DNA of 64,000 nt from Candidatus Woesebacteria bacterium (GCA_050115675.1 JASFQB010000004.1:7601-71600), one strand, 5' to 3'; counted from the stretch's first letter, positions 2,574 to 38,210 are shown. Translations and numbers: made by a program. Notes: generated by a model from the letters alone, not told the origin.

Positions 2574-2669
2574 GTATAACGAGTTTCACGGTGATATGAT
2601 TAAGGTGTGGTGCTGACATAAAAACGCCTTTTCATTGAACTAGATTAACTAAAGAGGATTTTTGCTTTA

Positions 2670-3083
2670 ATGCCAACAATCAATCAGCTTATACGCAAGC
2701 CTCGCAAGACGGCTAAAAAACCAAGTAAATCTATTGCACTTGGGCGTATTCATAACACACTAAAAAATAAATACCTACCTATGGGCGCACCTCTAAAAAG
2801 AGGCGTTTGTTTAAAGGTCACTACGCGTACTCCACGTAAGCCAAACTCGGCTATGCGTAAGGTTGCTCGCGTTCGCCTAACAAATGGATATGAAGTTTGG
2901 GCCTACATTGGCGGCGAAGGACACAACCTCCAAGAGCACGCAGTTGTTTTGGTGCGTGGTGGACGCGTGCCCGACTTGCCAGGTGTGCGATATCATATTG
3001 TACGTGGCGCGCTTGACCTTCAGGGCGTTCAAAACCGCAAACAAGGTCGCTCTAAGTACGGCGCTAAAAAGGAGTCTAAGTAA
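2670..3083 (+). CDS. rpsL: 30S ribosomal protein S12
   Basis: [10 protein letters not shown]...[16 protein letters not shown]... classic uS12 sequence. Confidence 0.98.
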
Positions 3084-3559
3084 TGCGTAAAGTTACAAAA
3101 TCTCTACAACGCAAACTCACTCCTGATCGCAAGTATAACAGCATTTTAATTCAGCGCTTGATCAATAAAAGCATGCGTGACGGCAAAAAGCAGATAGCAG
3201 AAAATGCCGTCTACGAAGCTCTAGACATTGCCTGCAAAAAGCTAAAAAGCGATAACGCAGCAGAAGTTTTCGAAAAAGCTATCAAAAATGTTTACCCATC
3301 AGTTGAGGTTAAAAGCCGACGCGTTGGCGGCGCAAACTATCAAATTCCATTCCCAGTGCAGGGCCATAGGCAGCAGCACTTAGCGTTTATGTGGTTTGTA
3401 CAAGCTGCACGCGCACGCAAAGGCATGCCTTATGCTGAGCGTTTGGCAGCAGAAATTGTTGACGCCAACAACCAAGCTGGTGCAGCCTTCAAAAAGAAAG
3501 AAGACACTCACCGAATGGCCGAAGCAAACCGCGCATTTGCGCACTTTGCTCGAGGCTAA
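3083..3559 (+). CDS. rpsG: 30S ribosomal protein S7
   Basis: uS7-like sequence, start overlaps rpsL stop (TAATG), canonical order. Confidence 0.97.
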   Translation: MRKVTKSLQRKLTPDRKYNSILIQRLINKSMRDGKKQIAENAVYEALDIACKKLKSDNAAEVFEKAIKNVYPSVEVKSRRVGGANYQIPFPVQGHRQQHLAFMWFVQAARARKGMPYAERLAAEIVDANNQAGAAFKKKEDTHRMAEANRAFAHFARG

Positions 3560-3979: not shown

Positions 3980-6058
3980 ATGGCAACAATCTCCCTAAAA
4001 CAATTTCGCAACATCGGCATTATTGCCCACATCGACGCAGGTAAAACAACCACAACCGAAGGCATTTTGTACCGCACTGGCCTAAGCCACAAAATTGGCG
4101 CCGTGCACGAAGGCGAAACAACTACCGACTGGATGGAACAAGAGCGTGAACGCGGCATCACCATTACCAGTGCAGCCGTAACTTGCTTTTGGAAAGAGCA
4201 CAAAATCAACATTATCGACACCCCAGGCCACATTGACTTTACAGCCGAGGTAGAGCGTTCTTTGCGCGTTTTAGACGGCGCTGTTGTTGTATTTGACGGC
4301 AAAATGGGAGTAGAGGCCCAAACCGAAACAGTTTGGCGCCAGGCTAACAAGTATAACGTTCCTCGCGTTTGCTTCATCAACAAGATCAACCAAACCGGTG
4401 GTGATTTTTACAAATCACTAGAAAGCATTCACCACCGCCTAAGCAAGCGAGCTTTGCCCATTCACTTGCCAATTGGCTTTGAGCAAGGTGTCTGTGGTGT
4501 CGTAGACCTAGTTAGCATGAAGGCTTACACCTACAAAGAGTTTGCAGATCACGCACTTATCGAAGGCGAAATTCCTGCAGACATGCTAGAAAAAGCTAAA
4601 AACGCACGCACACTGCTTGTCGAAGCTGCTGTAGAGGCAGATGACGCATTATTTGAAAAATATCTAGAAAACGGCGAAGAATCAATTTCTGAAGGCGAAC
4701 TAAAAAGCGCACTACGTAAATCTGTGCTGTCTGGCGAATTTTACATCGTAACTGGCGGTGATGGCCGCGGCGTTATTGTAGAAAAAGTCCTAGACCTTGT
4801 TGTAGACTATCTACCAAGTCCACTTGACGTTGGTTCTGTTTGGGGTACAAATCCAAAAACTGGCGACCAAGTTGAGAGAAAGCCAGAAGATAGCGAAGCT
4901 ATGGCTGCCCTGGCATTTAAAGTTGCAACCGACCCATTTGTTGGTAAGCTTATCTTTGTTCGTGTTTACAGCGGCAAATTAAGCGCAGGTAGCTACATTT
5001 ACAACGCCACAACTGGTAACAAAGAGCGCGTTGGACGCTTGTTGCGTATGCACGCCGACAAACGCGAAGACATTACCGAAATTGGCGCAGGCGACATTGC
5101 TGCAATCGTTGGACTTAAAGACACAACAACCGGCACAACTCTTTGCGACGCAGCCAATCCTATCATACTTGAAAGCATTGACTTCCCTGAGCCACCAGTA
5201 AGCATTGCCATTGAACCAAAAACTAAAGCCGACCAAGAAAAAATGGGTATTGCCCTTCAGAGACTGGCCGAAGAAGACCCAACCTTCCGCGTACGTTCAG
5301 ATGAAGAAACCGGCCAAACAATTATTAGCGGTATGGGCGAACTTCACTTAGAAATCATTGTAGACCGCATGAAGCGAGAATTTAAAGTCGAAGCCAACAT
5401 TGGACAGCCCCAGGTTGCCTATCGAGAAGCAATTAAAAAGCAAGTCGAAATCGAAGGCAAATACATTAAGCAATCTGGTGGTCGCGGTCAATACGGTCAC
5501 GTATGGTTGCGAATTGAGCCAAACGAAACTGGCAAAGGCTTTGAATTCTTTGACGAAATCAAAGGCGGCGTTGTTCCTCAAGAATATCGCAACCCTGTTA
5601 AAAACGGTATCGAAGAGACACTTAAAAACGGTGTCATGGCTGGATACCCAGTAGTTGACGTAAAAGCAACTCTTTACGACGGTAGCTATCACGATGTTGA
5701 CTCAAGCGAAATGGCCTTTAAAATGGCCGGTGCGCTTGCAGCCAAAGAGGGCGTTAAAAAGGCTGCCCCAGTTTTGCTTGAACCAGTAATGAAGGTTGTG
5801 GTTGTGACTCCAGAGGAATTCATGGGTGATGTAATTGGCGGCCTAAATAGCAAACGCGGCCGCATTGAAAGCATGGAGGATTTAGCTGGTGGAACCAAAG
5901 AAATTACTGCGATGGTGCCATTGGCAGAGATGTTTGGCTACACAACAACTCTACGAAGCTCAACTCAAGGCCGAGCAAGCTCAAGTATGGAACTGGCCCA
6001 GTACGAGGAAGTTCCACCAAACGTAGCCGAAGCTGTTATTGCAAAACGCGCTGCCTAA
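3980..6058 (+). CDS. fusA: Elongation factor G
   Basis: [18 protein letters not shown]-domain, full EF-G length (692 aa from ATG 3980, SD gagga upstream; ORF-track start 3941 probably too early). Confidence 0.97.
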
Positions 6059-6159
6059 AGATTGATATTGCAAAGTGTAAAAATGCGACTTTGTTAAACA
6101 AATTAATTAATTACGCTATACTTTTAATGTAAGTCATTAATAAACGAGGGTAATTAATT

Positions 6160-7227
6160 ATGGCAAATAAATCTTTATGTTTAAGTTATCGCAGTTGGTC
6201 TGAATATCAATGGCCAACCACTTTAGATGCAATATACACTGACGGTGGCAGAGTTAATTTACAATACTACAACGTAAGGGACCCGTATTATTGCTACTCG
6301 TACTCATCAACTTGGAGTTCAAAATCTTGGAACGTGGGCGCAACAGGAACACCAGCTACGTCCATTAGAAACAGCGGCAAAGATGTAGGTATATTTTATA
6401 GATCCGGCGTTAAAGGTGAGGCAATATCTTGCATTAGCTGGGATTCTGGATCAACAAAATACGAGGCAGGCTGGTCAGAAAAACCAGAGATAATTGTGTC
6501 ACGCGACGTAGCTTTTGACCCAGGAGCGGTTGGACGCGACTCTACCCACATTGAGCTTGTCTGGACAAGCTCAGCAGGGGCGCTAAAACGTAGAGGCTGG
6601 GATTATGGCGAGGGTGGCTGGATGCCAATTGGCGAAATAATGCACGCCGACATTGTCAGCACCCCAAGCATTGTGTCACGAAACCCTACTTCCATGGACG
6701 GCGTTGCAATAAAAAACAATGGCGACCTTGTTCATTTTTGGTGGGATGTTAAGTATAGCCAGAATAGCGGATGGCAGTGGGAGACGTGGGGAGTAAATGC
6801 AACTGGCAACCCAGCGATTATCAACCCCGACAACGACTCTTACTGCTGCCTTTGCCGCAACGGACAAGGTCAGCTTGTAGTGCATAATTGGTCGAGCATC
6901 TCTGGGCACAGCCAAAAAGTAATCCCGGCAAAAATGAACAGCGACCCTGCGGCACTGTCATTGCGAGGGGCAATATACGTTGTTTATGTAGAAACCAACG
7001 GCGACCTCGTAATTCTACGCACCGACACAGAACAAAAACAAGTACTATTTAAGGGCAATGCACTTGCAAGCACACCACGAATAAGCATTGCTGAACACTC
7101 ACAGTTCCATACATTCACCTACATAATGCCTGAGATAGTTTTCTGGGATAAGAACAGCAAGCTAAGACGAATCAATGTGAATCCACAGATGGCAGTAATT
7201 ACCAGCGAGACCTTACCTTCAGTATAG
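6160..7227 (+). CDS. Hypothetical repeat protein, probable 7-bladed beta-propeller (lectin-like), no signal peptide
   Basis: ~50-aa internal periodicity with recurring [ST]-P...G-L/I-V/I-hydrophobic...W motifs (e.g. NNGDLVHFWWD, GQGQLVVHNW, TNGDLVILRTD). Confidence 0.55.
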   Translation: MANKSLCLSYRSWSEYQWPTTLDAIYTDGGRVNLQYYNVRDPYYCYSYSSTWSSKSWNVGATGTPATSIRNSGKDVGIFYRSGVKGEAISCISWDSGSTKYEAGWSEKPEIIVSRDVAFDPGAVGRDSTHIELVWTSSAGALKRRGWDYGEGGWMPIGEIMHADIVSTPSIVSRNPTSMDGVAIKNNGDLVHFWWDVKYSQNSGWQWETWGVNATGNPAIINPDNDSYCCLCRNGQGQLVVHNWSSISGHSQKVIPAKMNSDPAALSLRGAIYVVYVETNGDLVILRTDTEQKQVLFKGNALASTPRISIAEHSQFHTFTYIMPEIVFWDKNSKLRRINVNPQMAVITSETLPSV

Positions 7228-7247
7228 TTTTACAAAATGTACAACAT

Positions 7248-7279
7248 AAAGAAGCTTCTACTTTGGAGCTTCTTTTGTT
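7248..7279 (+). terminator. Terminator after the propeller gene
   Basis: Stem aaagaagctt/gagcttcttt, T-rich tail. Confidence 0.6.
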
Positions 7280-7317
7280 AGTATATAATTACCACATATT
7301 AAGGACGTATCAGCAAC

Positions 7318-8433
7318 ATGAAAAGCCAACTTCCACAGCCGAATTCCTACATAAAACAGATCGCAACGTACAAGACAGGCCTGTCAACCGGCGAATTGGC
7401 AAGCATGCTCAATAAACCTTTAGATCAAATTGTGCGACTTGCAGCCAACGAAAATCCGCACGGCCCAAGCCCTAAAGTCCAAGAAGTTATTAGAAACTAT
7501 GCAAAAGATATGTCAAGATATCCTGAGGTGCACGTATTACAAAAAGGCATTGCCAATTACCTTAAAGTTGACCCGCGTAGCGTAATCGTTGGCAACGGAT
7601 CTTGCGAAATACTAGAGATAATTGCCCGTGCATTTTTGCAAGTTGGCGATGACTCAATTTTTCCAGAGCAATCTTTTGTTGTATACAAACTGGCTAGCCA
7701 ATACATGGGTGCAAATTGCATATCTATTAAGTCCAAGCCCGGCTATGCAGATGACCTTGACGGCATGCTGGCTGCAATAACACCAAAAACACGCGTGATG
7801 TGGCTTGCTAACATCAACAATCCAACAGGCAATTTTACGTCGTACAAAGAAGTAAAAAAATTCATAAAAAGCATTCCATCAAGAATTGTCATAGTGCTAG
7901 ATGAAGCATATTTTGAGTATCTTGACCCAAAAGAAGTCGAGGACTCACTACAGTGGATTTATGAATTCCCTAATTTAATAGTCACCAGAACATTCTCTAA
8001 AGTTTATGGACTGGCAGGCCTGCGCATTGGCTATGGGGTAGGAGCACCCGTCATAATTGACTCACTACAACAAATGCGTGGCCCATATAACTGCAACAAC
8101 ATGAGCGTTATAGCAGCACTAAAATCACTAGAAGACAAGGACTACGTGAATCTGAGCCGCAAAGCAAATTCTGAAGGCCTAAAGCAGATTACAAAAGGAC
8201 TAGACAGAATTGGTTACAAATATCTGCCCACAAAAGGCAATTTTGTATCCGTAAATGTAGGCAATGCAAGCAAGGTTGCAAAAGCACTAATCAATGAGGG
8301 AATAGTAGTTTTGCCTCTAAACGGCTACAATATGCCAGAATATATAAGAGTAAGCGTTGGACTAAAAAGCGAAAATTCTAAGCTACTTGAGGGATTATTA
8401 AAAATCAAAAGCACTAAAGACTTTACTTTATAA
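7318..8433 (+). CDS. hisC: Histidinol-phosphate/aromatic aminotransferase (class II PLP aminotransferase)
   Basis: [28 protein letters not shown] and [18 protein letters not shown] (PLP-Lys) motifs typical of HisC. Confidence 0.8.
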
Positions 8434-8522
8434 GAGTAAAACATTATAATTTCAGCATACGCCTTGAGGCGGTTTTACTGCCTAATGCGAATAAAAATAA
8501 TATTAAGGAGAACTACATTACA

Positions 8523-9707
8523 ATGGCAGGATCATTTGACCGAAGTAAGCCACACGTAAACGTAGGTACCATGGGTCACGTTGACCACGGTAAGACCACT
8601 TTGACCGCTGCTATCACTGCAGTTTTGGCAAAGCGCCTTCCAAGCGAAGTCAACAAACCTATCGCCTACGACCAAATTGACAACGCACCTGAAGAGCGAC
8701 AGCGTGGTATTACCATCGCTACTTCTCACCAGGAGTACGAGTCAGAAAAGCGCCACTACGCGCACGTTGACATGCCTGGTCACGCCGACTACGTTAAGAA
8801 CATGATTACCGGTGCCGCTCAGGTTGACGGTGCTATTCTTGTTGTTAGCGCAGCTGACGGCCCAATGCCACAAACCCGCGAGCACGTTCTACTTGCTCAC
8901 CAGGTTGGTGTGCCTAAAATCATTGTCTTCCTAAACAAGATGGACATGGCCGACGCAGAACTAGTTGAACTAGTTGAAGAAGACGTTCGTGACCTTCTTG
9001 CTAAGAATGGCTTTGACCGCGACTGCCCAATTATCAAGGGCTCAGCTCTTAAAGCTCTAGAGGGCGACACCGCCAACGAAGACGCAATTATGGAACTTGT
9101 TAAAGCTATGGACGACTACATCGAGGAGCCCGTTCGTGACCTAGACAAGCCATTCCTAATGCCAATCGAAGACGTCTTTTCAATTAAAGGTCGTGGCACA
9201 GTTGCTACCGGCCGTATTGAGCAAGGTATCGTAAAAATCAACGACGAAGTTGAAATCGTTGGTATTCGACCAAACCAAAAGAGTGTTGTAACCGGTGTTG
9301 AGGCCTTCAAGAAGAGTCTTGACCAAGGACAAGCTGGCGACAACGCTGGCCTGTTGCTTCGAGGTGTCGAGCGCGACCAAATTGAGCGTGGTCAGGTTAT
9401 TGCAAAACCAGGCAGCATTACTCCACACACCGAGTTTGACGCCGAAGTTTACGTTTTAACCAAAGAAGAAGGCGGACGTCATACTCCATTCTTCAAGGGC
9501 TACAAGCCTCAGTTCTACTTCCGCACAACGGACGTAACTGGTGAGGTTGAGCTTCCAGCAGACAAAGAAATGGTAATGCCAGGTGACACAGTAACCTTTA
9601 AAGTTAAACTGCTTTCACCGATTGCCATGGACCAAGGTCTAACGTTTGCTATCCGCGAAGGTGGCCGAACTGTTGGTGCTGGCGTTGTAACCAAAATCAA
9701 CAAATAA
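8523..9707 (+). CDS. tuf: Elongation factor Tu
   Basis: [27 protein letters not shown] motifs; 394 aa. Confidence 0.98.
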
Positions 9708-31969: not shown

Positions 31970-32371
31970 ATGACAGCAAAAAATGAATATTTTTACGGGC
32001 TAGGTCGCCGCAAGGCATCTACTGCACGAGCTCGAATTTACAAGGGCAAGGGCGTAATTACCATCAATGACAAAGAGGCTATTGAGTATCTAAGCAAAAA
32101 CCAAGCTATGTGTGATGAGCTAAAGCAGCCACTTGCACTTATTGGTAAAGAAAAAGATTACGACATTACCATTCTTGTTGAAGGCGGTGGACACTCAGGC
32201 CAAGTAGACGCTATCAAGTTAGCGATTAGCAAAGCTTTAAGTGCTATGAACGATGATCTTCGTTCAACCCTTAAGAAAGCTGGGCTTCTAAAGCGCGACC
32301 CACGTGAGGTAGAGCCAAAGAAATACGGTTTACGAAAAGCTCGCAAGCGCGAACAATTTTCGAAACGTTAA
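31970..32371 (+). CDS. rpsI: 30S ribosomal protein S9
   Basis: uS9 (GLGRRKASTARARI..., ...KARKREQFSKR). Confidence 0.97.
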   Translation: MTAKNEYFYGLGRRKASTARARIYKGKGVITINDKEAIEYLSKNQAMCDELKQPLALIGKEKDYDITILVEGGGHSGQVDAIKLAISKALSAMNDDLRSTLKKAGLLKRDPREVEPKKYGLRKARKREQFSKR

Positions 32372-32382
32372 TCTCAAAATTC

Positions 32383-32432
32383 TATACAAACGCAAAAGAC
32401 TTCTGTTGCAAGGAGTTTTTTGCGTTTGTATA
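32383..32432 (+). terminator. Terminator after rpsI
   Basis: 15-bp stem tatacaaacgcaaaa/ttttgcgtttgtata. Confidence 0.7.
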
Positions 32433-32451
32433 AAAAATTACCTAAATTGAA

Positions 32452-32486
32452 AAGGCGCCCCAGCTCTATATGAGCTGGGGTGCCTT
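32452..32486 (-). terminator. Terminator for the minus-strand membrane protein gene
   Basis: 15-bp stem aaggcgccccagctc/gagctggggtgcctt (one G-U). Confidence 0.65.
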
Positions 32487-32513
32487 CTTTAACAATTACA
32501 TTGGTTCTTGATG

Positions 32514-33236
32514 TCATTTAACTTCCGCCTTGTCCGCCTGAAGCGTTAGGGCGGTACCACTGCTTGATTTATCGCCAGGCTTTGACTCAGGCGGCGAACT
32601 ACCTGCTGACGCTTTATCTAAAAGTTGCCGCCCGACTACCGCAGCAGGCAAAAAGCCACCTTGCACCAAGAAGCTAGCTGCAATTTTTTCGTTAAAAGAC
32701 AGGGCAAGCATAATTACAAGATCAGCAATCCACCACCCAAAAGGAACATTAGAGGGAAAAACATTTTGAGCCGCTACATCACCAAGTGATGCGCGCGTAA
32801 AACCACCACAATCTGCAAGAGTATCGAGCAACATAACACCAATTACAGCAACGGCTGGCAAGAGCTTAAGAGCATAGTCTACAAAAGAAACGCAATCCGA
32901 CCGTTTGATATAGAATATACCATCTTTTCCTTTGTAAATGTTTGCCCAAAACGAAATTTGTACACCAGATGTAATAACTGACATCGAGATGCTTGCAATC
33001 ACATTAACGCTTAGCACAAACAAACCAAGATCGTATGCTGGCAGAAACTTGAACCACAACGAGTAGAATGTCGCACCAAAAGAAATATCAATTAGAGCAA
33101 GAGATAAAATGGCCACAATGTAAATTGAACTGTTAAAGATTCTCCAAACTAGAGTCACCAGTCTCACTTCCCATCCGTCAGTATCAGTTTGGCTGTGATC
33201 TTTTGACACAACGCCTCCCGACATAGCATTACGCAA
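32514..33236 (-). CDS. Membrane protein (240 aa, ~5-6 TM, Ser/Pro-rich C-terminus), hypothetical
   Basis: Hydrophobic segments; no motif recognised. Confidence 0.65.
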   Translation of the reverse strand: MRNAMSGGVVSKDHSQTDTDGWEVRLVTLVWRIFNSSIYIVAILSLALIDISFGATFYSLWFKFLPAYDLGLFVLSVNVIASISMSVITSGVQISFWANIYKGKDGIFYIKRSDCVSFVDYALKLLPAVAVIGVMLLDTLADCGGFTRASLGDVAAQNVFPSNVPFGWWIADLVIMLALSFNEKIAASFLVQGGFLPAAVVGRQLLDKASAGSSPPESKPGDKSSSGTALTLQADKAEVK

Positions 33237-33306
33237 GAAACAAGACCCATACAGGCCCTAATGGATAGGCAAACAATAACACACAATAACAAGCCAAACA
33301 ACATAT

Positions 33307-33335
33307 TTGACTTTAGATTATGCACGATCTAAACT
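33307..33335 (+). promoter_or_regulatory. Candidate promoter for the leader transcript
   Basis: TTGACT-17 nt-TAAACT; predicted start ~33342, i.e. at the leader ATG (leaderless). Confidence 0.35.
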
Positions 33336-33342
33336 AACAGGT

Positions 33343-33460
33343 ATGCGAACATTTAGACAGGCTTTTTATTTTTGGTTTACCGCGCACCATTAGGGCGGTT
33401 TGTTTGCGTATAAAAAATAATTATTTAAAAAGATCGCCCAAAAAGGCGATCTTTTTAAAT
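33343..33460 (+). promoter_or_regulatory. Candidate transcription attenuator: 16-aa aromatic leader peptide (MRTFRQAFYFWFTAHH) plus alternative hairpins and a 16-bp terminator
   Basis: Leader ORF 33343-33393. Segments: 1 accgc (33379-83), 2 gggcggttt (33393-401), 3 aagatcgccc (33430-39), 4 ggcgatcttttt (33445-56). 1:2, 2:3 and 3:4 pairings are mutually exclusive. Confidence 0.4.
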
Positions 33461-33483
33461 TAAGTGTACAAAAGGAGAAACTT

Positions 33484-34734
33484 ATGACACAATTACTTGA
33501 AACGGTAGGAGAGAGACAAGTGGACAGAGTTGACGCTATTTTTGAAAGCGCAAGACGTCGCGAAAAGGAGATGCTTGAAAACGCGCAAAAATCAGAATTA
33601 ACTGCGGCCGAAATGCGCCTAATGCTACACGAATGCCTTCAGCAAAATCCAGAAGCCCTTAATGCAATCCATAAGTCCAGGCGCGAGATAGCCGCTGTGC
33701 AGCTTGGGTTAAGCAATAAGGGCGTTTTTATTTCTGGACAGTGCTCTCCTGACATGCGCCCGCTAGAAGATGGACGTTACCCTGCATACGAGGTTCCCCA
33801 CGCGTTACACGAAAACGCACAAAGACACGTTGACTCTTTAGTACATATACCTCGCGTATGCTGGAAGAAGCCACGAAGCAGTGCGGGACCAGCAGGACTA
33901 TATCACGAGCAGGGCGGAGCAACCTTTGCATTGCGCGAGGTTTATCTACCACTGGTACAAGCTGGGGTGCCATTTGCCTACGAATTTTTAGACCCAAATG
34001 ACCCTCTTCAAGATTGCGCAAGCTACGCATGGTTGGGTGCACGTAGCGTAGGTCACAATGCGCTTTGGTATCCGCTTTCTGCAAATGCAACATGCCCGGC
34101 TGGATTAAAAAATGGTGAGGCTGGCAGATTTCATAAAGTTGACGATGCAGCAAATGCTATTCGTAGCCGAACAACTGTCCAGGCTGCACTACCGGGATAC
34201 GAAGCCACCATCATAACAAGTGGCAACAGCTTCGTAAACTCCATATATCGCGGAGGAGAACTAGTAAAGCTCGGGCTGGAGGATCCAGGCGAAATTCGCG
34301 AAGCCTTTCAGCAGGGATACAAGGATTTCTGCCGAACATCTTATAAACATCATATGCGCGTAATGTTAGACATATCCCACGGAAATGCTAAGTTATTTAC
34401 GCGAGGCGCACGAGACGAACGTGGGCAGTTAGATTGCTTCGACGCTTTTGAAGACCTCTTGCAGCAAAATCCTACAATAGTTAGATACGGCGAAATGAAT
34501 GCGCCACGCGATATTACGGTAAAAGACGTGACTATGGGAGCCATGGCTGAGGTAAGCTGGCTGCCTGGAAGAAACAACGCAGAAGAAGGCGTCATTGCAG
34601 GACGCAGCGATGTTGACGCCTGCCTGGGATTAGGCCAGGGGATTGACTTACAAAAGCGCATGGCCGAGCTGTTTGATGACGGCAAAAATGACATACCACT
34701 ATGGATAGATCACCCAGCCTTCCAGGAGGTGTAA
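33484..34734 (+). CDS. 3-deoxy-7-phosphoheptulonate (DAHP) synthase homolog, type I-alpha-like, divergent
   Basis: Aligned by eye to my recollection of E. coli AroG: GQCS (GPCS, Cys61), PRV...KKPRS (R92/K97/R99), EFLDP...WLGARS, GLKNGEAG, RGG, LDISHGN (His268), GAMAEVSWLPG (Glu302), SDVDACLG (Asp326). Confidence 0.7.
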   Translation: MTQLLETVGERQVDRVDAIFESARRREKEMLENAQKSELTAAEMRLMLHECLQQNPEALNAIHKSRREIAAVQLGLSNKGVFISGQCSPDMRPLEDGRYPAYEVPHALHENAQRHVDSLVHIPRVCWKKPRSSAGPAGLYHEQGGATFALREVYLPLVQAGVPFAYEFLDPNDPLQDCASYAWLGARSVGHNALWYPLSANATCPAGLKNGEAGRFHKVDDAANAIRSRTTVQAALPGYEATIITSGNSFVNSIYRGGELVKLGLEDPGEIREAFQQGYKDFCRTSYKHHMRVMLDISHGNAKLFTRGARDERGQLDCFDAFEDLLQQNPTIVRYGEMNAPRDITVKDVTMGAMAEVSWLPGRNNAEEGVIAGRSDVDACLGLGQGIDLQKRMAELFDDGKNDIPLWIDHPAFQEV

Positions 34735-34785
34735 TATCGCCAATGACTCGTCATATAATCACAAAAATTGTATACTAGGAATAAC

Positions 34786-35835
34786 ATGCAACAAGAGAGA
34801 GTATTAACAGGCATTCGCTCTAACGGCGAGCCTCACATAGGAAATTATCTGGGCGCTATGCTGCCTATGATAGAAATTCAAAAACGACATGAGCAAAGCA
34901 AAGAGATGTTCTTTTTTGTACCCGATTTGCACTCGTTTACAACGCCAGTAGACCACACCACACTTTATCAACATACTGTACGCAATCTTAAATATTACGT
35001 AGCCGCGGGCATGGATTTTTGGGCTGAGGGCACATTTTTGTATCGACAAAGCTATATATCTGCACACAGCGAATTAACCTGGATTTTAAACTGTTTTGCC
35101 TATTTTGGCGAGTTAGGACGAATGACCCAGTTTAAAGACAAATCCGCTAACGAGGAGCGCAACGTGTCTGTTGGGCTGTTCGACTACCCAGTCTTAATGG
35201 CCGCAGACATTTTGCTTTATAACGCCAGATACATACCTGTTGGCGAAGACCAGCGTCAGCATCTAGAGATTACTCGAGATCTTGGTATTAGGATTAACAA
35301 CAAATTTGAAGACGTCTTTTCTGACGGAGTTTTTAAAGTTATACCAGAAAACTGGGACAAGCAGCTTGAGTTTTCTCAGCGCGACAGGGGAGTGCGAATT
35401 AGAAGTCTGCGAAATCCAGAAAAAAAGATGAGCAAATCTGTCAGTGACCCTGCTGGCACAATTGGATTGCTTGACGATCCAAAAGATGCAGCTAAAAAAA
35501 TTATGTCTGCAACAACCGACAGTGTAGGCTCAATAAATTACGACTGGCAAGCTCAACCTGGTATTTCTAATTTGATTCAAATTTTAGCACTTTTAACAGG
35601 CAAACCTGTACACGAAATTGCAGCCAAGTGGCAAGGAAATCAGCGCTATGGAGACCTAAAACAAGCTACTGCGCAAGAGGTAGAAAGGCTTTTGACTGAT
35701 TTTCAATCTAAAACCAACAGCATCAACGAAACTAAATTAATTGCAAAACTCGAAGAAGACGAAGCCAAAGTTAACCAAATAGCAAAAGCAACATTACTGC
35801 GCGTACAGCAAGCAGTAGGATTAAGACCTCGTTAA
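34786..35835 (+). CDS. trpS: Tryptophan--tRNA ligase
   Basis: GEPHIGNYLGA (HIGH-type), VGEDQRQHLEITRD, KMSKS; ~349 aa from ATG 34786. Confidence 0.9.
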   Translation: MQQERVLTGIRSNGEPHIGNYLGAMLPMIEIQKRHEQSKEMFFFVPDLHSFTTPVDHTTLYQHTVRNLKYYVAAGMDFWAEGTFLYRQSYISAHSELTWILNCFAYFGELGRMTQFKDKSANEERNVSVGLFDYPVLMAADILLYNARYIPVGEDQRQHLEITRDLGIRINNKFEDVFSDGVFKVIPENWDKQLEFSQRDRGVRIRSLRNPEKKMSKSVSDPAGTIGLLDDPKDAAKKIMSATTDSVGSINYDWQAQPGISNLIQILALLTGKPVHEIAAKWQGNQRYGDLKQATAQEVERLLTDFQSKTNSINETKLIAKLEEDEAKVNQIAKATLLRVQQAVGLRPR

Positions 35836-35843
35836 AAAGCAAA

Positions 35844-36719
35844 ATGAGCGAAACACTACACATTACAGCAGTAACAACTGGAGAGAGATTGGATGTCTTG
35901 CTTGCAAAATCGTGGCCAAATTTTAGCCGCAGTTTTTGGCAAGCAAGATGCTCAGCTGGCTTTGTTATTAGTGACGGCACGCCACGAAAATCAAGCTATT
36001 TAACTACAGAGGGTGAAGAATTTAGTATAATAATGCCCGAAAAACCAGACTTTAGTGAGCAAAACATTCCCGTACTCTACCAAGACGACGACGTGATTGT
36101 GCTAAACAAACCAACAGGCATACTTACTCATGCAAAAGGCGCAATTTGTGACGAATTTAGTGTAGCTGAATTTGTGCGCCCACTTACAACAGACAACCCA
36201 AACAGCAATCGACCAGGAATCGTTCACAGACTAGACAGAGGTACATCAGGAGTAATCATTGCAGCACGCAACCCCGAAGCTAAGTCTTGGCTGCAAAAAC
36301 AATTCTCTAACCGAAAAGCCAAAAAAAGCTATATCGCATTATTACATGGTCACCTAAAAGAGCCCTCTGCAAAAATAGATCTACCGATAGAGCGCAACCC
36401 ACGCAAACCGCAAACTTTTAGAGTAGGGAGTAATGGAAAATCGGCAATAACAGACTACGAAACCATCCAGGTTTTGCCAAATTACACCTTAGTTAGGTTT
36501 TTTCCGCTAACTGGACGCACACACCAAATAAGAGTACACGCTGCATATTTAGGACATCCAATTGTTGGCGATCCATTTTATGGGAAACCCAGCAAAGATA
36601 TCGGTAGGTTATTTTTACACGCCTCCACACTAGAGATTACACTGCCATCCAAAGAGCGAAAGGTTTTTGAAGCACCTTTACCCAACAAGTTAAAGCAGTA
36701 CATAGATGATATCAGCTAA
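35844..36719 (+). CDS. rluD: RluA-family 23S rRNA pseudouridine synthase (RluD-like, with S4 domain)
   Basis: HRLDRGTSGVII catalytic-Asp motif; TGRTHQIRVH. Confidence 0.85.
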   Translation: MSETLHITAVTTGERLDVLLAKSWPNFSRSFWQARCSAGFVISDGTPRKSSYLTTEGEEFSIIMPEKPDFSEQNIPVLYQDDDVIVLNKPTGILTHAKGAICDEFSVAEFVRPLTTDNPNSNRPGIVHRLDRGTSGVIIAARNPEAKSWLQKQFSNRKAKKSYIALLHGHLKEPSAKIDLPIERNPRKPQTFRVGSNGKSAITDYETIQVLPNYTLVRFFPLTGRTHQIRVHAAYLGHPIVGDPFYGKPSKDIGRLFLHASTLEITLPSKERKVFEAPLPNKLKQYIDDIS

Positions 36720-37542
36720 GACGCATATCCATCCGGGATCGTTTAAAATTTTTAACGCCTATGCAAAAAATCCGCCACACGCGCTGCTTATTACAGGACC
36801 TTCTGGCATTGGTAAGTTTGCAGTGGCAAAATTTTGGGCAGAACAAACTAGCGTGCATAGTAATTTTGAAGTAATTGAGCCCGAAGGTAGCACGATAAGC
36901 ATTGAGGCAATCAGAGGTTTATACCGCAGTTCACGCAGCAAACAAGTTGGACAACAGATGATTATTATTAAAAATGCCCAAGCAATGAGCGATGCGGCCG
37001 AGAATGCCCTACTAAAGCTACTCGAAGAGCCAAGGGCTGGTATTACTTTCATATTGACTGCCACACACAAGCACGCGTTGCTACCGACAATTCTGTCACG
37101 AGTGCAGCATATTGAACTTCGTAGGCTTGATCAAAAAACAATGCAGAATTTAGTCATCACAGCCAACCCAAACCTAACGCCAACAGATATGGCGCAATTG
37201 CTTTTTATTGCTGCGGGCCGTCCAGAAGTAGCAATAAAACTAGCAACCAGCAGCGACCAGCTTCAAAAAAAACGTCTACTAATGCAGCAAGCAAAAGAGC
37301 TAATATCCGCTAAACCATATCAGCGCATTTGCGATATAAATAAACTCGCTAGCAACAGATTAGACTGCATCGAGATATTAGATGCCATGCTTCTAATGAC
37401 CCAAGTTCAAATAAAAAGCGCCAGTCCAAGCTTAGTAGATCATCTTTTAGGGCGTGCGAACATAATAGAAAACACATTGGCAAAAATCTCGTGCAACGGC
37501 AACATTAAAGCGCAATTGCTAGCGTTGTTCAGTCTGCTATAA
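36706..37542 (+). CDS. holB: DNA polymerase III subunit delta'
   Basis: HALLITGPSGIGK P-loop-like, AENALLKLLEEP, SRVQ motifs. Confidence 0.75.
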   Translation: MISAKTHIHPGSFKIFNAYAKNPPHALLITGPSGIGKFAVAKFWAEQTSVHSNFEVIEPEGSTISIEAIRGLYRSSRSKQVGQQMIIIKNAQAMSDAAENALLKLLEEPRAGITFILTATHKHALLPTILSRVQHIELRRLDQKTMQNLVITANPNLTPTDMAQLLFIAAGRPEVAIKLATSSDQLQKKRLLMQQAKELISAKPYQRICDINKLASNRLDCIEILDAMLLMTQVQIKSASPSLVDHLLGRANIIENTLAKISCNGNIKAQLLALFSLL

Positions 37543-37553
37543 TATAAGCAAGT

Positions 37554-38210
37554 ATGTTTTCACTGCTACTAATAGTCGCCATGGGCGCACTAACAATTTA
37601 CAGTTTTATAAAACCAGCCGAACCTGTTGATTTGGTGGTTTCTACTCGTTTGGGCGAAAAGCTTGAACGTTTGTGGGATATTGCGCATGAGGGAATCCGC
37701 GAGCAAAAATACCTACGAGCAGAAAAAGCCTTGCTTACAATTTTGCGCGTTGATGAGCGAAACGCTACTGCCTATAACCGTTTAGGCATTCTTTACGCAA
37801 AGCAAAGGGCATACAAAAACGCCATAGAATGTTTTGAAATTGCACAAAGTCTAGAGCCAAGCGCGTCAAGCTTGCACAACGTTGGGCTAATTTATTACGA
37901 AACAGGCCAATACGACAAAGCTGCCCTGGCGTTTGAGCAAGCAATAGAAATTGAAAGTTCGCTTGCAGCTCGCCACATTGCGTACGCTAAAGTTCAAGAA
38001 AAACTCGGTCACGCCAAAAAGATGATTGGCGCACTAGAAAAAGCCGTAGAAATTGAGCCAAATCCGCAATCGCTTACGATTTTAGCAGACGCCTACGAGC
38101 GCAGCGGAGAGGATATTTTGGCTGCTTCAATACGAGAAAAAGTCAAGGAAATAGTAACCGCCCCTCAGTCTGCCAAAAAAATCCATCAGCCGCGCCGTGT
38201 TGTGATGTAG
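37554..38210 (+). CDS. TPR-repeat protein with N-terminal TM helix
   Basis: Repeated A..YN.LG..Y...Y..A...FE.A 34-aa units. Confidence 0.75.
   Translation: MFSLLLIVAMGALTIYSFIKPAEPVDLVVSTRLGEKLERLWDIAHEGIREQKYLRAEKALLTILRVDERNATAYNRLGILYAKQRAYKNAIECFEIAQSLEPSASSLHNVGLIYYETGQYDKAALAFEQAIEIESSLAARHIAYAKVQEKLGHAKKMIGALEKAVEIEPNPQSLTILADAYERSGEDILAASIREKVKEIVTAPQSAKKIHQPRRVVM

Follow-up and report, generated by a model that had tools for sequence, protein, structure and literature searches.

A putative ribosome-mediated attenuator and a divergent type I-alpha DAHP synthase homologue upstream of trpS in a Saccharibacterium

The locus considered here lies in a window of 64,000 nucleotides (the whole stretch of DNA that was analysed, part of a 251.7-kb contig) and comprises a 5' element at 33343-33456, a 416-codon gene resembling those of DAHP synthases (DAHPS), and trpS, which is followed by three further genes on the same strand (Table 1). 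The order rpsI, leader, DAHPS-like gene, trpS, rluD, holB, TPR gene is common to relatives at 90, 81, 68, 63 and 35% identity, the same slot being also occupied by other DAHPS-like subtypes, and in related loci the protein clusters c1, c2 and c4 recur downstream of trpS with the rluD-holB-TPR order kept. Judging by this synteny and by the 52-70% identity of TrpS and the TPR protein, the host is a CPR bacterium, as the first-pass annotation of this DNA had presumed, and more precisely a Saccharibacterium; the NCBI label of the MAG is 'Woesebacteria'. In GenBank the MAG is represented by protein MGD8373892.1 and locus tag prefix PVI21_, and the 251,673-bp contig belongs to JGI metagenome 3300042731. 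The same annotation had put the stop codon of the DAHPS-like gene (34732-34734) 51 nt before the trpS start, seen no terminator between them and proposed a common transcript. The distance and the lack of a terminator were confirmed, and since the gap to trpS is 20-60 nt in all relatives, the two genes are very probably co-transcribed.

Table 1. Features of the DAHPS-like-trpS locus, with positions counted from the first nucleotide of the window
Feature	Position	Strand	Description
Promoter-like site	33307-33335	+	-35 TTGACT (33307-33312), 17-nt spacer, -10 TAAACT (33330-33335); consensus scan
Leader peptide ORF	33343-33393	+	MRTFRQAFYFWFTAHH*; 16 codons plus TAG (33391-33393); translation
Regulatory codons	33364-33378	+	TTT TAT TTT TGG TTT (Phe-Tyr-Phe-Trp-Phe), directly 5' of region 1; sequence
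Region 1	33379-33385	+	ACCGCGC; pairs with region 2 (anti-antiterminator helix); MFE fold
Region 2	33393-33404	+	GGGCGGTTTGTT; pairs with region 1 or region 3; first base shared with the leader stop codon
Intrinsic terminator	33427-33456	+	5' arm AAAAAGATCGCCC = region 3 (33427-33439), loop AAAAA, 3' arm GGCGATC and T-run = region 4 (33445-33456)
Shine-Dalgarno of DAHPS-like gene	33472-33477	+	AAGGAG; precedes ATG at 33484; sequence
DAHPS-like ORF	33484-34734	+	416 aa; divergent type I-alpha DAHP synthase homologue
Spacer DAHPS-like to trpS	34735-34785	+	51 nt, no terminator-like hairpin
Weak promoter-like match	34748-34776	+	TCGTCA-17-TATACT; could give basal trpS transcription
trpS, tryptophan--tRNA ligase	34786-35835	+	349 aa from ATG 34786; TIGR00233 281 bits (cut-off 176.75)
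rluD-like pseudouridine synthase	35844-36719	+	Pfam
holB-like DNA polymerase III delta'	36706-37542	+	Pfam
TPR protein	37554-38210	+	Pfam

The 416-residue ORF is real and encodes a type I-alpha DAHP synthase homologue, and a divergent one, as had been noticed by eye. It belongs to the Pfam family DAHP_synth_1 (PF00793; 38.4 bits at a gathering cut-off of 25.5, residues 72-302) and stays below the cut-off of the NCBIfam AroF/G/H equivalog TIGR00034 (74.9 vs 173.2 bits), as do all its relatives in Saccharibacteria, with 21-143 bits vs 173. The closest solved relatives by sequence are exclusively type I-alpha enzymes (E 4e-18 to 1e-14, residues ~52-302 and 350-389), identity being about 24-30% to AroG and 23-30% over the enzymes of this type. 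The AF2 model, built on a shallow alignment and of moderate confidence (pLDDT 72.8, pTM 0.78), has the barrel fold, and its structure matches in Foldseek are AroG, NmeDAH7PS and Aro4 only (1gg1, 1kfl, 4hso and 1hfb; E ~1e-19, target-normalised TM 0.72-0.77). In comparison with AroG, the protein carries an N-terminal extension of ~25-45 residues, already recognised in the first reading, a C-terminal tail and, past the His motif, 18 inserted residues (~328-345). A chorismate-mutase-like nature of the extension was considered and rejected, as no CM_2 match was found at E <= 1.

For the residue alignment we used an AroG reference sequence 100% identical to that of PDB entry 1gg1. The metal ligands Cys61, His268, Glu302 and Asp326 of AroG correspond to C87, H299, E356 and D378, and the residues holding PEP and the phosphate of erythrose-4-phosphate (E4P) are likewise present (R92=R124, K97=K129, P98=P130, R99=R131, T100=S132, R165=R187, K186=K209, R234=R256), while G163 aligns with G185; the equivalents of the four metal ligands and of R92, K97 and R99 had been predicted correctly. 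In 18 Saccharibacteria homologues, which are only ~20% identical, 20 alignment columns are invariant, and every metal, PEP and E4P-phosphate residue of AroG is among them. By this alignment, the metal, PEP and E4P-phosphate site of the protein is intact. The GWKG segment of the beta2-alpha2 loop, also reported as replaced in the first reading, is indeed GPAG here (W104-K105 to P136-A137); the loop has pLDDT < 50 in the model and is highly variable at this site among the Saccharibacteria homologues (PA, SP, QP, MR, KR, DH, PT, TT), some subtypes of which have moreover lost both the beta6a/6b insert and the loop at 303-325 by deletion. On what the lysine of GWKG (Lys107 in NmeDAH7PS) does, the literature searched yielded nothing. 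Given the absence of the GWKG loop and the score of 75 bits vs 173, specificity or regulation of the protein may differ from those of AroF/G/H.

The reading frame of the DAHPS-like gene is unbroken in eight lineages (58-100% identity). Comparison with the orthologue at 90% identity gives a pN of 0.065 and a pS of 0.718, hence a dN/dS of ~0.03 at saturated synonymous divergence, similar to that of the adjacent, essential trpS (0.044); by these estimates the gene is under purifying selection. The first-pass annotation had assigned it a GC content of ~52% and seen therein a hint of acquisition. The computed value is 0.492 at a window mean of 0.437 (96.7th percentile of the window), and this small excess, together with a pS against the related locus L001 that is higher in the DAHPS-like gene (0.72) than in trpS (0.45), is what could suggest that a foreign DAHPS gene was recently taken up by horizontal transfer. 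However, GC3 (0.434) is inside the range of the neighbours, so that recent transfer was rejected on composition; the identical slot is occupied in relatives down to 35% identity and by other subtypes, and no close homologue outside CPR was found, the next-best match after the family having E ~1e-18 in a search of 1.8 billion representatives. We therefore regard recent acquisition as highly improbable.

The 5' element, which had escaped the first-pass annotation, consists of the 16-codon ORF MRTFRQAFYFWFTAHH and overlapping anti-antiterminator, antiterminator and terminator helices. As the leader ATG is 8 nt past the -10 box, transcription presumably starts at or next to this ATG and would give a leaderless or almost leaderless mRNA; in most of the 71 related loci the -10 box is also placed 6-9 nt before the leader ATG and there is no Shine-Dalgarno sequence. 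The whole leader folds at -37.6 kcal/mol (z = -4.55) and the terminator alone at -19.5 kcal/mol, while the antiterminator is the MFE fold obtained with region 4 omitted (-21.7 kcal/mol). The family covariance model matches 33364-33455 with 65.5 bits (E 8e-14), the sole strong match in the 64-kb window, in which neither a second leader copy nor a one-mismatch motif was found, only terminators. The hallmarks of an attenuator are found here together: a short ORF with codons for the regulating amino acids; a terminator before the first gene and a mutually exclusive antiterminator, the latter with covariation in the family; and a suitable placement of codons and stop, the former ending at 33378 with region 1 starting at 33379, and the latter (33391-33393) sharing its last base with region 2.

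From this anatomy, the operation of the element can be envisaged as follows. Transcription would start at or beside the leader ATG, and a ribosome would translate MRTFRQAFYFWFTAHH. If charged tRNA-Phe, -Tyr or -Trp runs short, the ribosome would stall on TTT-TAT-TTT-TGG-TTT and cover region 1, so that region 2 could pair with region 3; no terminator would form, and RNA polymerase would go on to transcribe the DAHPS-like gene and trpS. With an ample supply of charged tRNAs, the ribosome would reach the TAG codon and occlude region 2, the 3:4 terminator would form, and most transcripts would end at 33456. The masking of region 1 by the stalled and of region 2 by the released ribosome is a footprint argument, and the direction of regulation would follow this logic.

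A pattern search recovered 73 matches in Saccharibacteria MAGs (species genomes) and 12 elsewhere, about 8 being expected by chance according to our own calculation. The leader parts TGGTTTACC and GGCGGTTTGTT are invariant by construction of the search pattern; the covarying positions fall outside the part fixed by it. An ATG-started, stop-free ORF in frame with the Trp codon is present in 71 of 74 loci (control frames: 1 and 2), the ATG-to-Trp distance being 9-11 codons in 59 of the 71. The [Y/F]-W-F core is conserved, Tyr preceding Trp in 55/71 and Phe in 13/71, with synonymous codons in use at this position across the 71 loci (TAT 52, TAC 3, TTT 13, TTC 3). Pairing in the family alignment amounts to 85.3% of cells for helix 1:2, vs 22-51% when slid (col23-col30: CG 34, GC 12), to 92.6% vs 41-57% for helix 2:3 (col30-col107: GC 35, CG 15, UA 8), and to 91.1% for helix 3:4. 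Since a spacer of either 11 or 12 nt puts the region 2 segment in two reading frames, this segment appears to be conserved as RNA. A search of Rfam at E <= 10 over 32300-36000 gave no T-box, and its only matches, to Phe, Thr and Trp leaders, were below threshold; the scores were 28.7 bits for Phe_leader and 20.8 bits for Trp_leader, at gathering thresholds of 55 and 41. The family is absent from Rfam 15 and had no match in the literature searched, so that a leader-peptide attenuator of at least 70 Saccharibacteria species (73 found) appears to be new and not previously described.

In all 64 evaluable Saccharibacteria loci trpS is located downstream of the leader, which by this distribution is primarily a leader of the trpS operon. 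Leaders with many aromatic codons also occur at loci whose sole cargo is trpS, and the leader alone is therefore no proof of a biosynthetic role of the cargo; in a close lineage, P0004 (L003/L004), the gene was kept and the leader lost. Between leader and trpS there is a slot whose content ranges from a four-enzyme operon to small ORFs only. DAHPS-like genes are found in 11 of the 73 leader loci, prephenate dehydratase in two (PF00800, E 1e-49 and 4e-38) and chorismate mutase in one. The four-enzyme operon, at locus L098 of a relative (SRR28521197), comprises a DAHPS-like gene with P-A at the GWKG site, as in the window protein, a prephenate dehydrogenase-like gene (tyrA), CM/PDT (pheA; NF008865 240 bits vs 219, TIGR01807 81 vs 70) and IlvE (313 bits, cut-off 279), followed by trpS. 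Its leader reads YFFFTDF, without a Trp codon, which suggests that the regulatory codons may track the cargo. In the distant subtypes L010 and L053 the DAHPS-like gene is followed by the same c8 protein, which belongs to no known family, and by an Asp/Glu-racemase-like gene; cargo families c8, c9 and c11 gave no Pfam or PDB sequence match, and a 355-aa ORF elsewhere in the window (6160-7227) is unrelated to any cargo family. As far as gene content goes, the slot holds lineage-specific cargo enriched in enzymes of aromatic amino acids, which in the lineage of the window is the DAHPS-like gene alone.

Such a gradation of slot contents, along with the genome reduction typical of the group, might be taken to mean that the DAHPS-like gene is an evolutionary leftover which no longer has a function, the last survivor of an aromatic operon in decay. 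This idea, already disfavoured, deserves very little credence in view of the dN/dS of ~0.03 over saturated synonymous divergence, the frame kept intact in eight lineages and the invariant active site. 

We consider it fairly probable, on the strength of the comparative data as a whole, that the ORF is a fast-evolving yet functional type I-alpha DAHPS and the first gene of a DAHPS-like-trpS(-rluD-holB-TPR) operon under the ribosome-mediated attenuator at 33343-33456. The enzyme would then use PEP and erythrose-4-phosphate as substrates to form DAHP, which would presumably be destined for aromatic amino acids.

It is also conceivable, though rather unlikely, that the protein is a neofunctionalised DAHPS-like aldolase, condensing PEP with a phosphorylated aldose, with a changed substrate or product fate and with partners outside the canonical shikimate pathway, and still induced by shortage of aromatic aminoacyl-tRNAs. 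The sub-threshold equivalog scores of all Saccharibacteria homologues, the freely variable GWKG loop, the deletions of the beta6a/6b insert and 303-325 loop, the unusual neighbours of the gene in L010 and L053, and the fact that no downstream shikimate gene was seen in the window are in line with such a change of function. Yet none of the ligands of PEP and of the E4P phosphate varies, nor does the KPR(S/T) motif, and the L098 homologue with the same P-A loop as the window protein sits in a textbook Phe/Tyr operon.

As to the pathway, none of aroB, aroD, aroE, aroK, aroA and aroC, nor genes for chorismate mutase (CM) or prephenate dehydratase (PDT), were found in the 64-kb window and 10 kb past its right end. 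The earlier statement that the window contains no further gene of the shikimate pathway was therefore accurate, and the term 'orphan' holds for this stretch of DNA only. Cultivated Saccharibacteria have been described as devoid of amino-acid biosynthesis (PMC10633639), in which case DAHP may have no canonical sink in the genome of the window. It was proposed in the first-pass annotation that an orphan enzyme might feed a non-aromatic route, such as that of a sugar acid or cell-envelope precursor, or act as a sensor. The isolation of the gene in the window and the general auxotrophy of CPR bacteria fit this proposal; nevertheless we find it quite improbable, because the leader with its Phe, Tyr and Trp codons and the aromatic enzymes in the same slot of relatives, L098 above all, tie the enzyme to aromatic amino-acid supply, the operon is shared with trpS, and a purely sensory protein would not be expected to have all catalytic residues strictly conserved.

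Saccharibacteria, like other CPR bacteria, are regarded as host-dependent amino-acid auxotrophs, and to our knowledge almost nothing is known of nutrient sensing in them; the Saccharibacteria/Patescibacteria literature searched contained nothing relevant on shikimate, DAHP synthase, chorismate, leader peptides or attenuation. The leader suggests that Saccharibacteria monitor the charging of aromatic tRNAs, and its cargo (DAHPS-like, chorismate mutase, prephenate dehydratase, prephenate dehydrogenase-like, IlvE and possibly salvage enzymes) indicates that part of them retains, or recently retained, Phe/Tyr biosynthetic enzymes. One may further speculate, with considerable doubt, that different lineages keep different fragments of the pathway (only the first step here; only CM, PDT and prephenate dehydrogenase in other lineages), and that the missing steps are supplied through metabolites exchanged with the host bacterium, the Y-W-F attenuator switching the fragment according to the charged-tRNA status of the symbiont. 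If so, biosynthesis would be shared by the episymbiont-host pair, and in the attenuator CPR bacteria would have their first described device for sensing amino acids, through which one could ask what the host actually delivers. Genetically tractable Saccharibacteria could serve as a test system, provided that the leader precedes their trpS. The DAHPS-like family in itself offers a natural series of barrels that have diverged extremely around an unchanged active site, which may help to separate catalytic determinants from regulatory ones. Should the genome have a full shikimate pathway, the enzyme would be ordinary and the leader would still be the more valuable result.

Among known enzymes, the protein is to be compared with E. 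coli AroG/AroF/AroH (1KFL, 1GG1, 1QR7), DAH7PS of N. meningitidis and yeast Aro4. It shares with them, in the model, the (beta/alpha)8 barrel with type I-alpha decorations, and in sequence the Cys/His/Glu/Asp metal site and the KPR(S/T), GAR, KNG, RGG and SH(G/A)N motifs. It differs from them in its low identity (23-30%), in its score (75 vs 173 bits), in GPAG for GWKG, in the N-terminal extension, 18-residue insertion and C-terminal tail, and in having no known pathway partners nearby.

As for the leader, in Firmicutes a T-box riboswitch upstream of trpS allows read-through when tRNA-Trp is uncharged, by competition between antiterminator and terminator. The trpS read-through logic is similar here; however, the window leader has no Stem I or specifier, with ~30 nt before the conserved core, and its sensing would go through a translating ribosome. 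The T-box reading was rejected, as there was no Rfam T-box match even at E <= 10. TnaC of the E. coli tna operon is a leader peptide of ~24 residues in which a Trp (position 10-12) directly precedes a Phe (...KWFNID...), and it resembles the window leader in being small and having Trp then Phe. In contrast to the Rho-dependent tna operon, an intrinsic terminator and an antiterminator are present here, and neither for trpS nor for DAHPS would it be sensible to be induced by a surplus of Trp. Since species differ in which of two frames they use for the C-terminal half of the leader, there is no conserved Pro-stop arrest module, and on this ground and that of the intrinsic terminator a TnaC-like arrest peptide was rejected.

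Closer parallels are the leaders of E. coli trp (trpL) and pheST (pheM), the latter operon being controlled by attenuation as stated in the summary given in PMC11802643, and showing by precedent that cognate codons can regulate the operon of an aminoacyl-tRNA synthetase. They have in common with the window leader the alternative 1:2, 2:3 and 3:4 helices, the codons at the 5' edge of region 1 and the intrinsic terminator, and differ from it in that it has, instead of tandem identical codons, a single Trp codon with Tyr and Phe codons on its flanks and does not match Rfam Trp_leader or Phe_leader at gathering score. According to the same source, which summarises Neshat et al. 2014, the C. glutamicum aroR leader (Phe-Tyr-Phe) upstream of aroF is a short ORF with consecutive Phe/Tyr codons, through which a DAHP synthase gene is controlled by ribosome-mediated attenuation, as we suppose for the window. 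Compared with aroR, the window leader belongs to another phylum and has another sequence, adds a Trp codon, has trpS as the constant member of its operon and appears to be leaderless.

The 416-aa product belongs to the Pfam family DAHP_synth_1 (38.4 bits, threshold 25.5) and lies outside the curated equivalog, since the NCBI AroF/G/H model gave it 75 bits against a cut-off of 173. Its solved relatives detected by sequence were exclusively type I-alpha DAHP synthases (E 4e-18 to 1e-14), and a Foldseek search with its AlphaFold model (pLDDT 72.8, pTM 0.78) returned only AroG, N. meningitidis DAH7PS and yeast Aro4 (E ~1e-19, target-normalised TM 0.72-0.77), which bears out the homology proposed in the first-pass annotation. 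In a pairwise alignment with E. coli AroG (reference 100% identical to PDB 1gg1/1kfl), C61, R92, K97-P98-R99-T100, G163/R165, K186, R234, H268, E302 and D326 correspond to C87, R124, K129-P130-R131-S132, G185/R187, K209, R256, H299, E356 and D378, respectively. Thus, all the metal ligands and arginine/lysine residues named in that annotation are present, together with further ones, and the GWKG loop is replaced, as it stated, with P136-A137 at the position of W104-K105. The protein is labeled phospho-2-dehydro-3-deoxyheptonate aldolase by JGI and hypothetical by NCBI. Only eight proteins among 5.8 billion clustered ones are 58-100% identical to it; when 1.84 billion representatives were scanned exhaustively with HMMER, one further relative appeared, P0009 (37% identity, E 3e-55), the next matches having E ~1e-18. 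Across 18 Saccharibacteria homologues, some just ~20% identical, 20 columns are invariant and take in all metal, PEP and E4P-phosphate residues of AroG, while the GWKG positions are free to vary, a pattern typical of a catalytic core kept intact within a relaxed or changed periphery. By these comparisons, the protein is a new, strongly diverged member of the known type I-alpha DAHP synthase family.

Comparison with the 90%-identical orthologue (locus L001) revealed strong purifying selection on the DAHPS-like gene (pN 0.065, pS 0.718, dN/dS about 0.03), the adjacent trpS giving pN 0.030, pS 0.451 and dN/dS 0.044. As a side observation, pS between 33484-35835 of the window and 2627-4969 of L001 is far larger for the DAHPS-like gene (0.72) than for trpS (0.45); the gap might stem from codon constraint that differs between the two genes, or from recombination that replaced an allele. 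Recent acquisition had been suggested on the basis of a GC content of ~52%. The measured value is 0.492 against a window mean of 0.437 (96.7th percentile), a small excess, and GC3 (0.434) is inside the range of the neighbours. Moreover, the relatives at 90, 81, 68, 63/62 and 35-37% identity all lie 5' of trpS-rluD-holB-TPR, mostly just after rpsI, and this retained position disfavours recent acquisition. At 52-70% identity, the window TrpS and TPR protein match their counterparts in MAGs titled Saccharibacteria/Saccharimonadales, which also share the gene order; therefore the source organism is a Saccharibacterium, and the NCBI label 'Candidatus Woesebacteria bacterium' (MGD8373892.1) is probably a taxonomic mislabel.

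The region 5' of the DAHPS-like ORF, bounded on the other side by a divergent membrane-protein gene, contains a leader that the first-pass annotation overlooked.

Coordinates of the features in the window
Feature	Position	Strand	Remarks
Trp/Tyr-rich protein, 355 aa	6160-7227	+	no Pfam family; precedes the HisC-family gene
HisC-family aminotransferase	7318-8433	+	TIGR01141, 303 bits, cut-off 276.6
Promoter-like site (putative)	-35 at 33307, -10 at 33330-33335	+	
Leader ORF	33343-33393	+	16 codons, translation MRTFRQAFYFWFTAHH
Strong terminator (predicted fold)	33427-33456	+	just 5' of the ribosome-binding site
DAHPS-like ORF	33484-34734	+	416 aa; good ribosome-binding site AAGGAG

The leader RNA folds at -37.6 kcal/mol (z = -4.55). 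Without the 3' arm of the terminator, the MFE fold pairs GGGCGGUUU (from 33393) with AGAUCGCCC (to 33439), a pairing predicted to be the antiterminator. In Rfam, the window leader region resembled the Phe, Thr and Trp leaders below threshold only; with our covariance model exactly one strong copy was found in the window (65.5 bits, E 8e-14). A spacer of 51 nt, in which there is no terminator-like hairpin, separates the DAHPS-like stop from the trpS ATG (34786), and the two genes are very probably co-transcribed, as proposed earlier. A promoter-like match, TCGTCA-17-TATACT (34748-34776, + strand), ends 10 nt 5' of the trpS ATG and might drive a basal level of trpS expression that bypasses the attenuator, the transcript being near-leaderless.

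The leader also precedes the DAHPS-like gene in four other lineages, whose proteins are 90% (L001, leader peptide MQQFSQAFYFWFTAYY), 81% (L005, MQQSFNIAFNYWFTALTRAVC), 63% (L006/L007, MSTNQTNRFYTWFTCAKRRFVRSVHH) and 35-37% (L010, MNKALTYFFYWFTTPQLAVCSVRLHP) identical to that of the window. In the lineage of P0004 (L003, 1423-1567, and L004) it is lost, the gene directly following rpsI and its terminator; the protein there (68% identity, 390 aa) is devoid of the first ~27 residues.

Scanning 185,579 species genomes with the pattern TGGTTTACC-N8-14-GGCGGTTTGTT, both segments of which are invariant by construction, produced 85 matches (about 8 expected by chance, by our own calculation): 73 in Saccharibacteria/Saccharimonadales MAGs and 12 scattered elsewhere, the latter without the leader ORF and terminator layout. 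An ATG-initiated stop-free ORF is in frame with the Trp codon in 71 of 74 non-redundant loci (1 and 2 for the other two frames), its ATG being 9-11 codons upstream of Trp in 59 of the 71; the preceding residue is Tyr in 55 and Phe in 13, with synonymous codons in use. In related loci this ATG lies 6-9 nt after the -10 box and lacks a Shine-Dalgarno sequence, so the leader mRNA is apparently leaderless. Owing to a spacer of 11 or 12 nt, GGCGGTTTGTT is read in two frames (...VAVCSVR* or ...GGLFRVFA*), and this half is thus conserved as RNA. In the 73-sequence alignment the mutually exclusive helices 1:2 (anti-antiterminator), 2:3 (antiterminator) and 3:4 (terminator) have 85.3, 92.6 and 91.1% of cells paired, against 22-51, 41-57 and 42-70% when the 3' partner was slid. 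The position just 5' of GGCGG, outside the fixed pattern, covaries with region 3 (GC 35, CG 15, UA 8) and with region 1 (CG 34, GC 12). One locus, L033, carries tandem copies (3046-3144 and 2657-2755, minus strand; 96 and 61.5 bits) with an 80-aa ORF between them, followed by an unannotated 420-aa gene and trpS.

In 64 of the 73 loci, trpS follows the leader on the same strand, and the remaining nine end at a contig edge within 1.7 kb; hence, the element is the trpS-operon leader. The contents of the slot between terminator and trpS vary. DAHPS-like genes of several very different subtypes (310-363 aa) occupy it in 11 of the 73 species; two species carry a prephenate dehydratase (PF00800, E 1e-49 and 4e-38) and one a chorismate mutase, at threshold. 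Aspartoacylase/aminoacylase-like, M20 peptidase and Asp/Glu-racemase-like genes and an aldo-keto reductase gene occur as well. Three unannotated families, c8 (~270 aa), c9 (~340-355 aa) and c11 (~411-420 aa), without Pfam or PDB sequence matches, occur at L010 (3097-4514), L053 (genes 2-3 after the leader), L018, L027, L095, L020 and L033, and are candidates for aromatic or amino-acid salvage functions. In most Saccharibacteria (about 40 of loci L012-L095), the attenuator is directly followed, ahead of trpS, by an ORF of 50-110 aa that has a Shine-Dalgarno of its own; these ORFs, which may be real proteins or gene remnants, form several unrelated small families (e.g., ...RRR..ELxEAAKRG..., ...LAQEAFRLANYDMTPED..., ...LRQHGVE...DDxRPPEEIVR...).

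The clearest case of aromatic cargo is L098, with the order rpsI, leader (4190-4302), DAHPS-like, prephenate dehydrogenase-like, CM/PDT/ACT, IlvE, trpS (DAHPS-like through trpS, 4320-9197), rluD, holB and TPR. Its CM/PDT/ACT and IlvE exceed NCBIfam cut-offs, and its DAHPS-like protein shares P-A at the GWKG site with that of the window. Region 2 of its leader diverges (GAGGCGGCTAATT), and the peptide MSQTLHAVAYFFFTDFSEAAN contains Tyr and Phe codons and no Trp codon; judging from this locus, the choice of regulatory codons seems to follow the cargo. The aromatic codons of the leader and the aromatic amino-acid genes of L098 speak against the sugar-acid route or sensor role put forward initially; of that interpretation, the competent-looking enzyme and its probable co-transcription with trpS stand.

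As to the pathway, aroB-aroC, CM and PDT genes are absent from the 64-kb window, as had been noticed for the shikimate genes, and from 10 kb beyond. HisC-type enzymes are aromatic aminotransferases in some bacteria, so the HisC-family gene, located between fusA and tuf in the str operon region, may be a second window gene related to aromatic amino acids. According to PMC10633639, cultivated Saccharibacteria lack amino-acid biosynthesis. We infer the activity and substrate of the DAHPS-like enzyme and the fate of DAHP; it may belong to a full pathway, to one that host metabolites complete, or to a modified route. The last is kept possible by the recurrent pairing with c8, which always follows the DAHPS-like gene and precedes a racemase-like gene (L010, L053).

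The best-supported reading, which we hold to be moderately probable, is a DAHP synthase of I-alpha type that is functional, very divergent and expressed with TrpRS under leader attenuation. As in classical attenuation, ribosomes stalling at the leader Phe/Tyr/Trp codons would allow both to be expressed together; the transcription start, ribosome footprints and direction of regulation are what we infer here. Neither a Saccharibacteria DAHPS nor a leader-peptide attenuator from any CPR bacterium is described in the literature searched. With this leader a known class, the ribosome-mediated attenuators, gains a new member, and one that is new for CPR bacteria. Precedents, as given in PMC11802643, are E. 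coli pheST and the aroR leader (Phe-Tyr-Phe) preceding aroF in C. glutamicum, the latter sharing with the window an aromatic-codon leader 5' of a DAHP synthase gene.
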